The notes beneath the pieces are model-generated. The model ran no database searches. It saw only the letters and a program-made list of their open reading frames with translations, and was not told the DNA's origin. A stretch of 4,142 bases of DNA from a virus. Its lineage: Duplodnaviria; Heunggongvirae; Uroviricota; Caudoviricetes. The stretch spans positions 1-4,142 of IMG/VR virus record IMGVR_UViG_2663763280_000002. The stretch is one strand, 5' to 3'. A program made the translations under genes and the position numbers. Positions 1 through 4,142 of this stretch are shown here, one piece after another (the first letter of the stretch is position 1; each line of letters opens with the position of its first letter).

Positions 1-1
1 G

Positions 2-433
2 GCTGCCGGAGGCGCTCAACAGGATGACGTGCTGATGTACGTGATGCTGTGGCGCATTGATGCCGGAGATTATGCAGGGGCGCTGGAGATCGGGCGTCAT
101 GCCCTGCGTCATGGCTGGGTGATGCCGCTGGGTAACCGCAACGTGCAGACCGTGCTGGCAGAGGAAATGGCAGACGCGGCGCAGAGCGCAATGCTTGCCG
201 CCACCGGCTTTGATGCCGATCTGTTGCTGCAGACGCTGGAGCTGACAGACGGTCTGGATATGCCGGACCAGTCACGGGCGCGTCTGCATAAAGCGATTGG
301 CGCTGTCCTGAGTGAAAGCAACCCGGCTTCCGCCCTTAATCATCTCAACCATGCGTTACAGCTCGATCCTCGCTGTGGCGTGAAAAAAGACAAACAGCAG
401 CTGGAGCGCAGACTGCGCAATGACAGCCGCTGA
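2..433 (+). CDS. M: Terminase small (endonuclease) subunit, gpM-like, C-terminal part; 5' end lies outside the window
   Basis: The reading frame is open from the window edge with no in-frame stop before TGA 431-433. The first start codon in frame is GTG 29, but the frame continues upstream, so the gene is 5'-truncated by the window. Assignment rests mainly on synteny: it sits immediately upstream of the L-X-lysis-R block, as in the P2 late operon (N-M-L-X). No diagnostic motif was verified. Confidence 0.5.
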   Translation, partial: AAGGAQQDDVLMYVMLWRIDAGDYAGALEIGRHALRHGWVMPLGNRNVQTVLAEEMADAAQSAMLAATGFDADLLLQTLELTDGLDMPDQSRARLHKAIGAVLSESNPASALNHLNHALQLDPRCGVKKDKQQLERRLRNDSR

Positions 434-528
434 CAGAACGTGCCCCCGCGCACGGGCGGCACGGGGTGGCGAAAGGCACTGCCACATCAAAACCCCGTCC
501 ACCGCCCTCTATTTCAGGAGAAAGCAGC

Positions 529-993
529 ATGAAGTTTGTTGCGCCAGAACAGGCACCAGAACAGGCGGAAATCATCAGGAATACGCCGTTCTGGCCTGAT
601 GTGGACCTGTCGGAGTTTCGCAGCGTGATGCGCACTGACGGCACGGTGACGCAGCCGCGTTTAAAGCAGGTTGCGCTGTCGGCAATTTCGGAGGTCAACG
701 CAGAGCTGTATGAGTTTCGCAGACGCCAGCAGATGCTGGGGTATGCCTCGCTGGCAGAAGTTCCGGCGGAACAGCTGGACGGCAAAAGTGAGCGCATTCA
801 GCACTATTTCAACGCGGTTTACTGCTGGGCACGCGCCATGCTCAACGAACGATACCAGGACTATGACGCCACGGCGTCCGGTGTGAAGCGGGGCGAGGAA
901 CTGGCGGAAGCAAGCGGTGATTTGTGGCGTGACGCCCGCTGGGCCATCAGCCGGGTGCAGGATGCGCCGCACTGCACAGTGGAGCTTATCTGA
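529..993 (+). CDS. L: Head completion/stabilization protein, gpL-like
   Basis: ATG 529 is preceded by AGGAG at 516-520 (8-nt spacer). The GTG at 466 used by the ORF track lacks an RBS. Stop TGA 991-993 overlaps the next start by 1 nt (ATG 993). 154 aa. Position between M and X matches the P2 order. Confidence 0.7.
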   Translation: MKFVAPEQAPEQAEIIRNTPFWPDVDLSEFRSVMRTDGTVTQPRLKQVALSAISEVNAELYEFRRRQQMLGYASLAEVPAEQLDGKSERIQHYFNAVYCWARAMLNERYQDYDATASGVKRGEELAEASGDLWRDARWAISRVQDAPHCTVELI

Positions 994-1196
994 TGAAAGT
1001 GCGTGCGCATCAGTATGACACGGTGGACGCGCTTTGCTGGCGTCATTACGGGCGCACGCAGGGGGTCACGGAGCAGGTACTGAAGGCAAATCCGGGGCTT
1101 GCCGAATACGGCCCCTTTTTACCTCACGGGCTGCAGGTGGAGCTGCCGGACATTCCGACCACCACCACCGTGCAGACCGTCCAGCTATGGGACTGA
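993..1196 (+). CDS. X: Phage tail protein X, gpX-like
   Basis: 67 aa ORF with ATG 993 and TGA 1194-1196. Same length class as P2 gpX. The sequence pattern (YGRTQGV...VLKANPGLAE...LPHG..VELPD) matches my recollection of the tail X family. Translationally coupled to L. Confidence 0.75.
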   Translation: MKVRAHQYDTVDALCWRHYGRTQGVTEQVLKANPGLAEYGPFLPHGLQVELPDIPTTTTVQTVQLWD

Positions 1197-1199
1197 ATT

Positions 1200-1415
1200 A
1201 TGACGCTTGAGCGAATCAGCGCCTTTATCACGTATTGCATCGCCGTCGTGCTGGCCTGGCTGGGCGATTTGTCCATCAAGGATGCCTCAACGCTGGGCGG
1301 TCTGATGATTGGTGTACTGATGCTGGCTATCAACTGGTACTACAAACACAAATCCTACCTGCTTCTGCGCGACGGGCAGATCTCGCGGGAGGACTATGAA
1401 TCCATCAATCGTTAA
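1200..1415 (+). CDS. Small class II holin, possible pinholin
   Basis: 71 aa. Two predicted hydrophobic helices (approx. residues 6-22 ISAFITYCIAVVLAWLG and 31-49 TLGGLMIGVLMLAINWYY) followed by a charged C-terminal tail (KHKSYLLLRDGQISREDYESINR). ATG 1200 lies 3 nt after the X stop. The 3' end overlaps the endolysin start by 20 nt. It occupies the holin position of the P2 lysis cassette. Confidence 0.7.
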   Translation: MTLERISAFITYCIAVVLAWLGDLSIKDASTLGGLMIGVLMLAINWYYKHKSYLLLRDGQISREDYESINR

Positions 1416-1908
1416 ACGCTGCCTTGTCGGGGCCGTGCTGGCTATTGCTGCCACGCTGCCGGGTTTTCAGCAGCTTCACACCTCCGTGGAGGGGCTGAAA
1501 CTGATTGCTGATTACGAAGGCTGTCGTCTGCAGCCGTATCAGTGCAGCGCGGGTGTCTGGACCGACGGCATTGGTAATACATCGGGCGTCATTCCCGGCA
1601 AAACAATCACGGAACGACAGGCAGCAGAAGGGCTGATCTCCAACGTGCTGCGTGTGGAGCGGGTACTGGAAAGGTGTGTGAAGCAACTGCCACCACAGAA
1701 GGTGTATGACGCTACGGTGTCGTTTGCCTTCAACGTGGGGACGGGCAATGCCTGCAGCTCCACGCTGGTGAAATTGCTCAATCAGCGGCGCTGGGCGGAT
1801 GCGTGCCGACAGTTGCCGCGCTGGGTTTATGTAAAAGGTGTGTTTAATCAGGGGCTGGATAACCGCCGTGCGCGGGAGATGGCCTGGTGTTTACAGGGAG
1901 CAAACTGA
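1396..1908 (+). CDS. K: SAR-type endolysin, T4-lysozyme-like (GH24) muramidase
   Basis: ATG 1396 is preceded by GGGAGG (1387-1392). 170 aa. After K7-R8 the N-terminus has a weakly hydrophobic Gly/Ala-rich segment (CLVGAVLAIAATLPGF) typical of signal-arrest-release domains. The lysozyme catalytic region is DYEGCRLQPYQCSAGVWTDGIGNT (Glu41 ... Thr56). Cysteines at positions 9, 43 and 50 match the pattern of P1 Lyz-like SAR endolysins. Confidence 0.85.
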   Translation: MNPSIVKRCLVGAVLAIAATLPGFQQLHTSVEGLKLIADYEGCRLQPYQCSAGVWTDGIGNTSGVIPGKTITERQAAEGLISNVLRVERVLERCVKQLPPQKVYDATVSFAFNVGTGNACSSTLVKLLNQRRWADACRQLPRWVYVKGVFNQGLDNRRAREMAWCLQGAN

Positions 1909-1909
1909 A

Positions 1910-2287
1910 ATGAAAAAGAAATTAATCAGCGGACTGTTTCTGATGTTATGGATGGCGCTGTTAATCGCAGCAATGGTGTATCCGCAGGGGATTTTTCCGG
2001 TACTGGCAGCGTCCGGCGTTTGGGTAGCCTGTTTGCTGACATGGGCGGTAATTCCGGTAGCACTGGCTGCGTTAATTAAGAATGGCCCGCTCTGGCAGGA
2101 GTTAAGGGCATCTTTACTGAAGACAATTACCCGAAAAGAAAACGTATTTATCAGTTGGGTGATGCGATTGCTGATTGTTGTAAGTCTCGCCTGGACGGGG
2201 TGGGCTATTACCCTGGTCTTTTATCTACTGACCGTTATTGCCTTCTGGATCACCCGTAATCAGATGGCGCAACAGGTAGCAGCATGA
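1910..2287 (+). CDS. lysA: LysA-like integral membrane protein, lysis-timing accessory
   Basis: ATG 1910 is 1 nt after the endolysin stop (TGA 1906-1908), with GGGAG at 1896-1900 (9-nt spacer). 125 aa with about four predicted transmembrane helices. Located between the endolysin and LysB as in P2. The GTG at 1838 in the ORF track would overlap the endolysin by 70 nt and has no RBS. Confidence 0.6.
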   Translation: MKKKLISGLFLMLWMALLIAAMVYPQGIFPVLAASGVWVACLLTWAVIPVALAALIKNGPLWQELRASLLKTITRKENVFISWVMRLLIVVSLAWTGWAITLVFYLLTVIAFWITRNQMAQQVAA

Positions 2288-2712
2288 ACCGGTTGCTGCT
2301 GGTTGTGCTGGCGTTATTACTGGCGGCGCTGGGCTGGCAGACGTGGCGGCTGGCTGATGCCAGCCAGACCATTAGCACGCAGGCAGACGAGCTGCAGAGC
2401 AAAAGCCAGGCACTGGCAAAGAGCAACAGCCAGCTTATCAGCCTGTCCATTCTGACTGAAACCAATAACCGGGAGCAGGCGCGGCTCTATGCCGAAGCAG
2501 AACAGACCAGCGCGCTGCTGAGACAACGACAACACCGGATCGAGGAACTGAAACGTGAGAACGAGGATTTACGCCGCTGGACTGATACTCCTTTGCCTGC
2601 TGACATTATCCGGCTGCGGGAACGTCCGACGCTCACCGGAGGTGCAGCTTATCGTCAGTGGTTGTCCGCGAGTGACACCGTGTCGGCTGGATCAGGCAGA
2701 GCCGCGCACTAA
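2284..2712 (+). CDS. lysB: LysB, inner-membrane spanin (i-spanin, Rz-like)
   Basis: ATG 2284 overlaps the lysA stop (ATGA). N-terminal transmembrane helix (LLLVVLALLLAALGW) followed by a Q/A/E/R-rich, coiled-coil-like periplasmic region. 142 aa. Contains the out-of-frame start of the lipoprotein gene lysC. Confidence 0.7.
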   Translation: MNRLLLVVLALLLAALGWQTWRLADASQTISTQADELQSKSQALAKSNSQLISLSILTETNNREQARLYAEAEQTSALLRQRQHRIEELKRENEDLRRWTDTPLPADIIRLRERPTLTGGAAYRQWLSASDTVSAGSGRAAH

Positions 2713-2845
2713 CGGTGATCTGAACGCGTTGTTGGATGAAACGGAGGCCGCCTGGGCGGTCTGTGCAGACAAAGTGGACATGATTATTGCGTGTCAGGAG
2801 CAAAACAGTGAACAAACCACAATCCCTGCGCCACGCCCTCAATAA
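2555..2845 (+). CDS. lysC: LysC, outer-membrane lipoprotein spanin (o-spanin, Rz1-like)
   Basis: GTG 2555 with GAGGAA at 2541-2546. Signal peptide MRTRIYAAGLILLCLLTLSG followed by the lipobox Cys21 (L-S-G-C); the residue after the Cys is Gly, consistent with outer-membrane sorting. Pro-rich C-terminus (TTIPAPRPQ). It starts inside lysB in another frame and extends 133 nt past the lysB stop, which is the overlapped spanin architecture. Confidence 0.7.
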   Translation: MRTRIYAAGLILLCLLTLSGCGNVRRSPEVQLIVSGCPRVTPCRLDQAEPRTNGDLNALLDETEAAWAVCADKVDMIIACQEQNSEQTTIPAPRPQ

Positions 2846-3239
2846 AGCGGTGCCTTATGTCCGCAATAACCCGGACAAACTGCATCTGTTTGTGGATAAC
2901 GGTTCGCTGGTTGCCACGGGGGCCAGCTCCATGTCGTGGGAGTACCGTTACACCCTGAACGCGGTGATTGAGGATTTCAGCGGCGACCAGAATCTGCTGA
3001 TGGCCCCGGTTTTGCTGTGGCTGAGGGATAACCAGCCCGATGCCATCAATAACCCGGCGTTACGGGAAAAACTATTCACCTTTGAGGTGGATATTCTGCG
3101 CAACGATGTCTGTGATATCAGCCTGAACCTGCAACTGACGGAGCGTGTGCTGGTCAGCACTGACGGTAGTGTGTCGAGTGTTGAAGCTATAGCGGAACCT
3201 GATGAACCTGAAGAAATGTGGACGGTGAAACGTGGCTGA
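2808..3239 (+). CDS. R: Tail completion protein, gpR-like
   Basis: GTG 2808 with AGGAG at 2796-2800 (7-nt spacer); the TTG at 2787 used by the ORF track is less likely. 143 aa. The N-terminus ([10 protein letters not shown]...[14 protein letters not shown]) resembles P2 tail completion protein R as I recall it. Stop TGA 3237-3239. The last few codons lie at or near the junction with non-phage sequence, so the integrity of the C-terminus is uncertain. Confidence 0.7.
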
Positions 3240-3244
3240 ACTGC

Positions 3245-3511
3245 AGACTGATGCACTCACTGGCGGTCACTGAACAACGCGCCAGCTTCAAAGCGTGGAC
3301 ATTACTGCTGGCAATCAGTGCCTTCTCGTTGTGTCTGCTGGGGACTTTCCTGGTGCGTTCCGGCGTGCTGGTATCGGTACACGCGTTTGCCTCTGATCCG
3401 GCACGCGGTATGTTTATCCTCGCCTTTATGGTACTGGTGATTGGTGGTTCGCTGCTGCTGTTTGCCGCACGTGGACACAAAGTTCGCTCACGCGTAAACA
3501 ATGCGCTGTGG
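3245..3511 (+). pseudogene. ccmF: Internal fragment of a cytochrome c maturation heme lyase (CcmF/NrfE family); no start codon context and no native C-terminus
   Basis: Translation [88 protein letters not shown] matches my recollection of the CcmF/NrfE region just after the Trp-rich WWD domain, including a His that would be the conserved periplasmic His. About 90 of roughly 650 codons are present. The frame ends in KTGT-stop at 3524-3526, which I do not recognise as CcmF. Boundaries are approximate (about 15 nt). Confidence 0.6.
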
Positions 3512-3613
3512 AAAACGGGCACTTAGCGTGGCAAATTGCGCTACCGGGGCACAACGCTGACGCAGCGTAGCGAGCTGTCCTTCCAGTTTTTCCAGCAGCA
3601 GGGCGGTTTTCAC
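3512..3613 (-). pseudogene. priC: 5' fragment (about 34 codons) of a priC-like gene (primosomal replication protein N'')
   Basis: The minus strand reads GTG (3613-3611) then [34 protein letters not shown], preceded by GAGGT about 5 nt upstream and an AT-rich TATCAT-containing region. This resembles the N-terminus of enterobacterial PriC from memory. The frame then runs into the ccmF-like fragment and stops (PQRIVYA-stop). Identification is less certain than for the other fragments. Confidence 0.4.
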
Positions 3614-3897
3614 GATAAGACCTCAATGAAAATGATAATTGTTATGCTAAAGTAGCCACTCTGTAAGCTGACAACACTCAATATGCAACGAATCATTTTA
3701 ATCATCATGTTGAACTGGTACAGGCAACCAGCGGCACGCTGATGATTTTGCGCCATACCGCACCGCTAAGTTCGGCTGATCGCGAAAAACTGGAACGCTT
3801 TTCGCATTCTGAAGGCCTGGATCTGTATCTCGCCCCCGATAGTGAGATACTCGAAACCGTCTCTGGTGAGATGCCCTGGTATGACTCAAACGGGTTT
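3614..3897. other. AT-rich non-coding spacer between the divergent priC-like and rluD-like starts; origin unassigned, possible promoter sequences
   Basis: No recognisable coding signal; the ORFs here are short and unrecognised. Local AT-rich stretch around 3620-3720 (e.g. TATCAT about 25 nt upstream of the minus-strand GTG). This may contain native upstream regions of the flanking fragments, or a further unrecognised fragment. Confidence 0.3.
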
Positions 3898-4002
3898 ATG
3901 GCACAACGAGTACAGCTCACTGCAACGGTGTCCGAAAACCAACTCGGTCAACGCTTAGATCAGGCTTTGGCCGAAATGTTCCCGGATTATTCACGTTCGC
4001 GC
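3898..4002 (+). pseudogene. rluD: 5' fragment (35 codons) of rluD-like 23S rRNA pseudouridine synthase D
   Basis: ATG 3898 followed by [35 protein letters not shown], which matches the N-terminus (S4-like domain) of E. coli-type RluD as I recall it. After codon 35 the frame continues as [16 protein letters not shown]-stop (4051-4053), which is not RluD and corresponds to the antisense of the next fragment. Confidence 0.6.
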
Positions 4003-4142
4003 CAATCGTTCCCTGGCCAGCAATCACTTTCGGATCATCGTAAGGTGGGATAAAAATACGACCTTCCATTTCGACAATTTCGCTCACTTTAGCGATAGTG
4101 TCGTTGAAATTATCACCATGCAGAACGACTTCTGCGGAGTAG
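4003..4142 (-). pseudogene. tdcB: Internal fragment of a PLP-dependent threonine/serine dehydratase (TdcB-like), running off the window end
   Basis: The minus strand from 4141 downward translates to [47 protein letters not shown], which matches my recollection of catabolic threonine dehydratase TdcB (fold-type II PLP enzyme). Homology ends at about 4003, where the rluD-like sequence begins. About 46 codons are present. Confidence 0.6.

Follow-up and report, generated by a model that had tools for sequence, protein, structure and literature searches.

The window analysed here, a stretch of 4142 bp, is the entire contig CCCB01000610.1 of the draft assembly GCA_000945835.1, as found by the exact look-up of a 91-aa open reading frame (ORF) that it carries. 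It consists of the late region of a P2-like prophage, to which five scraps of E. coli core genes are joined end to end over the last 895 bases (Table 1). The first of these scraps, an internal piece of ccmF, adjoins the cut-off tail gene S. Altogether, it is very probable that this patchwork stems from a chimeric DNA molecule or from artefactual concatenation and not from biology, and that the ccmF piece is an inert passenger in it. We infer for the joins an origin in vitro or in silico rather than in a cell, and most probably the feature does not exist as such in a genome.

The five scraps are 105 to 264 bp in size, originate from unrelated, widely separated, single-copy loci and lie in mixed orientations. 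By our count, five of the six pieces of the contig match reference genomes at 100%, the remaining one being the ccmF piece with 263/264 nt. The priC-ybaN piece comprises priC nt 1-102 in antisense, the intergenic region of 69 nt and ybaN nt 1-26 in sense, while the rluD piece starts one base ahead of the ATG and extends to nt 104 of the 981-nt gene. The tdcB piece runs off the contig end, and the minus-strand ORF at this point gives a weak Pfam PALP hit. For RNA families, no Rfam hit at gathering score was obtained in the window. As the contig number implies, the assembly GCA_000945835.1 comprises several hundred contigs. An earlier note on this DNA had described the ccmF piece as an isolated oddity beside lysis genes. 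This description does not hold, since the fragment abuts the truncated S and is the first of five abutting scraps, which shifts the question from a phage carrying a piece of ccmF to the reason why the contig is a patchwork.

Table 1. Features of contig CCCB01000610.1 and the matches or annotations on which they are based.
Feature	Position	Strand	Basis
P2-like prophage late region	1-3247	+	3246/3247 identical to E. coli A28 prophage
Terminase endonuclease subunit M, end	to 433	+	coordinates transferred from A28 annotation
L	529-993	+	A28 annotation
X	993-1196	+	A28 annotation
Holin	1200-1415	+	A28 annotation
Lysozyme	1396-1908	+	A28 annotation
LysA	1910-2287	+	A28 annotation
LysB	2284-2712	+	A28 annotation
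LysC	2597-2845	+	A28 annotation
Tail completion R	2808-3239	+	A28 annotation; Pfam GpR E = 6e-46
Virion morphogenesis gene S, first 16 nt (5 codons)	GTG at 3232, stops 3247	+	A28 annotation
ccmF internal fragment (264 bp), sense	3248-3511	+	263/264 nt, 88/88 aa vs E2865 ccmF
91-aa chimeric ORF, a gene call of the public record	3251-3526	+	exact product on record
priC-ybaN fragment (197 bp)	3512-3708	.	197/197 identical to E2865
rlmD internal fragment (192 bp), nt 570-761 of 1302, sense	3705-3896	+	192/192, strain 504838
rluD 5' fragment (105 bp), sense	3897-4001	+	105/105 identical to E2865
tdcB internal fragment (at least 141 bp), nt 357-497 of 990, antisense	4002-4142	-	141/141, strain 503025

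The identity of the first scrap was determined by a base-by-base comparison, in which it aligned without gaps to nt 775-1038 of the 1944 nt of ccmF from E. coli E2865. The first base of the piece is exactly that of codon 259 and its last base that of codon 346, out of 647 codons, and the encoded amino acids are all identical to CcmF residues 259-346, which corresponds to 13.6% of the protein. In a megablast search of 5426 complete E. coli genomes, ccmF was matched in each genome over window positions 3240-3511 with 98.9% identity, but the extension to 3240 arises only from two gaps, opened to take in an ACTGC that is similar by chance where the prophage part ends. The same gapped ACTGC stretch accounts for the start at 3245 that had been given before: the true match begins at 3248, whereas the end at 3511 stands.

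The only mismatch to E2865 is an A at 3469 in place of G, which changes GCG to GCA at the third codon position and is synonymous. Among the complete E. coli genomes no 100% match over the 264-nt ccmF piece was found (best 99.6%), and perfect matches exist there for the other four scraps (priC/ybaN, rlmD, rluD and tdcB). The A at 3469 is a private SNP or else an error in the reads.

The search with family HMMs that had been suggested gave a positive result as well. NCBIfam TIGR00353 (CcmF/NrfE family) matched with E = 2e-40 over profile positions 206-293 of 578, at a score of 139 bits that does not reach the full-length family cut-off of 569. Together with the nucleotide identity, this confirms, well outside the range of chance, the presence of an orphan internal fragment of the CcmF family. 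In Pfam, two hits below the threshold were obtained, one to the end of Cytochrom_C_asm (171-206 of 212; score 23.9, cut-off 28.7) and one to the beginning of CcmF_C (1-30 of 323; score 18.7, cut-off 29.9). Two such end-of-domain hits are expected of a piece that straddles Cytochrom_C_asm and CcmF_C. A sensitive blastn search gave one matching place per E. coli genome, annotated as ccmF among the matches listed, which identifies ccmF and not nrfE as the source. Since only the ccmF locus was found in each genome, an nrfE origin was ruled out. Of the former designation 'CcmF/NrfE-like' the CcmF family is thus retained, while NrfE has to be dropped in favour of ccmF specifically.

In the E. coli CcmF protein, the WWD domain comprises W229-S249 (PMC10746174), and the heme ligands P-His1 H173, P-His2 H303 and TM-His1 H261 have been described (PMC8975832). 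The reference CcmF protein shows histidines at 173, 261, 303 and 491. TM-His2 of E. coli CcmF is named His461 in PMC8975832; the reference protein has a Trp at 461 and a His at 491, and His461 appears to be a typo.

The fragment, which starts at residue 259, comprises no WWD domain. It keeps TM-His1 H261 (in LMHSLAV) and P-His2 H303 (in VSVHAF), and both ligand pairs are incomplete: the partner of H303 in the periplasmic heme pair, H173, lies upstream of the fragment, and the partner of H261 in the transmembrane b-heme pair, H491 (TM-His2), lies downstream. Two assignments of the earlier note have to be corrected on this basis. The histidine in a stretch of 11 residues, which had been placed in the periplasm, is H261 and therefore TM-His1, a transmembrane b-heme ligand, and a stretch of 10 residues taken as part of a TM helix holds the periplasmic P-His2 H303 (PMC8975832). 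Its statements that start-codon context, WWD domain and C-terminal half are lacking, and that a functional heme lyase is not encodable, are in agreement with a fragment of residues 259-346 of 647 in which WWD, H173 and H491 are missing. Judged from the sequence, the fragment cannot bind periplasmic heme or act as a heme lyase, since of the 647-residue enzyme with 15 TM helices only residues 259-346 are represented, the WWD domain is missing and half of each ligand pair is absent. Natively, ccmF is preceded by ccmE and followed by dsbE/ccmG, while the flanks found here are the truncated S and antisense priC. The ccmF piece is inert under any reading considered; if the structure were real, at most read-through transcription from the P2 late operon would be expected. 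Biologically, the piece carries little weight, as it is 14% of a housekeeping gene in a dead copy.

Concerning the prophage part, the module M-L-X-holin-lysozyme-LysA-LysB-LysC-R-S is colinear with the A28 prophage over 1-3247, with S being cut after 5 codons. These bases are present at a coverage of at least 80% in 957 E. coli genomes. Beyond the equivalent of 3247, where the phage sequence of the contig halts, S, V and W follow in the A28 prophage, and related prophages and phages likewise run on normally into these genes. None of the related P2-like phages or prophages carries the ccmF fragment, which agrees with the former remark that no phage biology explains its presence.

A single base (1360) separates 1-3247 from the prophage of an E. 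coli strain isolated from an echidna, and the identity of this part to the Klebsiella pneumoniae phages 4LV2017, the Kp48xx series and KP12 amounts to ~97.7%. Going by these identities, the late/lysis module appears to have been shared very recently across genera. According to the A28 annotation, the frame of LysC (Rz1-like) differs from that of LysB (Rz-like), whose end LysC overlaps before entering the start of R; the overlap of LysB and LysC is the ordinary P2-type spanin arrangement.

The five joins are located at 3247/3248, 3511/3512, 3704-3709, 3896/3897 and 4001/4002 and show overlaps of 0, 0, 4, 0 and 0 bp, respectively, the overlap of 4 bp being TCAT (3705-3708), which is common to the priC-ybaN and rlmD pieces. 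No motif for restriction or recombination recurs among the ten native ends, and with no site common to them a restriction-fragment library was ruled out. Neither direct nor inverted repeats were found flanking the pieces, and no mobile-element signature or target-site duplications were found at them. Vector, adaptor, linker or restriction-site sequence was detected neither at nor between the joins. Around the first join, native S and native ccmF show a similarity shifted by two bases at 3233-3262 (ACTGC, then CACTGGC compared to GACTGGC), which also stretched the alignment of the KP12 phage to 3264. This shifted similarity may be due to chance or may be a weak hint of homology-guided joining.

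In the megablast search of the 5426 complete E. coli genomes, no place covered at least 80% of 3100-4142; the pieces lie there at separate places, with a median of 5 per genome. The mosaic was found neither in the plasmid collection nor in the phage collection. Exact patterns of 30-32 nt across the prophage/ccmF and ccmF/priC joins were absent from GTDB representative genomes and metagenome contigs, and the prophage/ccmF pattern was absent from viral contigs as well. Altogether, the joins are reproduced in no independent genome or assembly among the collections searched. A search of the literature on CCCB01 and GCA_000945835 yielded nothing relevant.

Blunt and sequence-independent joins are the pattern that is given by in vitro ligation or by string concatenation. 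Small sheared and end-repaired genomic fragments might have been co-ligated during library or clone construction and then read or assembled as one molecule; alternatively, tiny contigs or reads might have been abutted by software without spacers. The sizes of the pieces fit the range of sub-library-size fragments or of single short reads. A de Bruijn misjoin was ruled out by reasoning, as neighbouring pieces share at most 4 bases and comprise no k-mer overlap, and consequently the joins were either present in some physical molecule or read, or were made after the assembly by concatenation. To bridge the whole set of five joins, which takes ~760 bp plus anchors, a read that is both long and accurate, a chimeric molecule amplified beforehand or concatenation by software is required. 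Against an artefact it can be argued that in a normal assembly competition from the true path through S would be expected at 3247, and that the sequence quality of the pieces equals that of real genome sequence.

Alternatively, the patchwork might have been formed in vivo, with a double-strand break at the start of S in a resident P2-like prophage being mended by end-joining of an illegitimate or alternative kind and with chromosomal fragments being captured as filler DNA; the competition expected from the path into S also speaks for this. We consider such an event unlikely, and the same applies to its consequence, by which the tail genes of the prophage would be inactivated and duplicate, non-functional scraps of ccmF, priC/ybaN, rlmD, rluD and tdcB would be present in the genome. 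All pieces match E. coli sequence essentially perfectly, and without k-mer overlap between them the joins must have existed in some molecule or read; the TCAT overlap at one join and the shifted ACTGC similarity near the first one would also suit a repair in the cell. However, alternative end-joining characteristically uses microhomology, which is missing at four of the five joins, and a single event would have to include five captures, independent of each other, of pieces of 105-264 bp whose loci are megabases apart. In addition, a small contig in a fragmented draft is the only place where the joins were observed, and they are absent from the 5426 complete genomes and the other collections searched. 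Alternative end-joining in E. coli is, as Chayot et al. are said to have described in 2010, rare and makes use of microhomology, and to our knowledge there is no precedent in E. coli for the capture of a string of several fragments in one event. Since E. coli has neither Ku nor LigD and classical NHEJ is considered to be missing in it (PMC11297215), the prior for five consecutive blunt joins in vivo is very low. A rare RecBCD/LigA-dependent end-joining activity of this organism (Chayot et al. 2010) is cited in the same paper. If the joins were real, they would represent a chromoplexy-like or filler-DNA multi-fragment end-joining, of at least five pieces and with hardly any microhomology, in a bacterium without Ku and LigD, which would be unusual and of note.

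A laboratory origin, with concatenated fragments of a cloned or shuffled library being present as an insert or contaminant in the sequenced culture, is very improbable. While a ligation-based library does yield blunt concatenation of short genomic fragments, the traces of vector, adaptor, linker or restriction sites are missing as described above, no match to the mosaic was obtained in the plasmid collection, and the pieces, being internal or 5' scraps in mixed orientation, show no design.

Finally, the idea of a phage cargo gene (moron) or of a decayed ccm/nrf operon remnant with a residual function as a small membrane peptide can practically be dismissed: the 91-aa ORF keeps to the frame of native ccmF, is open and lies downstream of the P2 late operon, from which read-through transcription would be possible, but 263/264 identical nt point to a recent copy of a core gene and not to a diverged phage gene, the related P2-like phages and prophages all continue into S without a ccmF fragment, the flanking genes are not ccm genes, which rules out a decayed ccm operon, no ribosome-binding site precedes the ORF, and it comprises neither the WWD domain nor P-His1 or TM-His2. 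From our own reading of the sequence, we take the ORF to be one that would encode roughly three hydrophobic helices.

The 91-aa ORF starts at ccmF Met260 and comprises 87 ccmF codons, followed by 4 codons and the stop from antisense priC. Among the gene positions indexed, its product is recorded on CCCB01000610.1 only, and what else belongs to its 90% cluster are ordinary ccmF calls, either partial or frameshifted, located at the ends of contigs or on error-prone ones. Upstream of the ATG at 3251 no Shine-Dalgarno-like sequence is visible. The scans for promoters and terminators gave 3 promoter-like and 3 terminator-like sites compared to 1.2 ± 1.2 and 1.5 ± 1.1 in shuffled sequence, which is close to the shuffled expectation, and they gave nothing upstream of this ORF.

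A 41-aa ORF on the minus strand (3488-3613), which is also called as a gene, combines the first 34 priC codons with 7 codons from antisense ccmF and is the second artefactual 'protein' of the contig. Furthermore, a 103-aa ORF on the plus strand (3742-4053) leads from the native rlmD frame in frame into the start of rluD (3898) and ends in antisense tdcB. This in-frame fusion of RlmD and RluD looks like chance (one in three) and not like design.

The record therefore serves as a warning, as the public entry calls chimeric ORFs as genes, namely the 91-aa 'CcmF_C-like' product and the 41-aa fusion with the PriC N-terminus. Such chimeric ORFs are also contained in the protein collection that was searched, and can seed false findings of 'phage cargo' or 'orphan domains' in scans.

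Compared to the late operon of phage P2 (O N M L X Y K lysA lysB lysC R S), the contig agrees in its genes and in their order from M through R, whereas its S is cut at 16 nt and the remaining tail module is missing. In comparison with E. coli ccmF, the gene of the System I heme lyase, the fragment is the same in nucleotide and amino acid sequence, apart from the one synonymous base, and comprises H261 and H303. In contrast to the complete gene, it lacks H173, the WWD domain, H491 and most of the 15 TM helices, lies outside the ccm operon and has no translation start signals.

The capture of filler DNA at double-strand breaks, known from alternative end-joining in E. coli and from eukaryotic NHEJ, likewise places ectopic genomic fragments at a break. 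It differs from the present case in that E. coli has no Ku and LigD (PMC11297215) and in that four of the five joins show no microhomology. A further parallel is given by chimeric inserts, reads and contigs from library construction or assembly. Five joins in a row are a lot for a single chimera, adaptor remnants are not present, and the diagnosis is one by exclusion. The contig shares with such chimeras the blunt and motif-free joins, the unlinked loci, the random orientation and the restriction to one small contig of a fragmented draft, while each piece has its normal parent locus in all other genomes.
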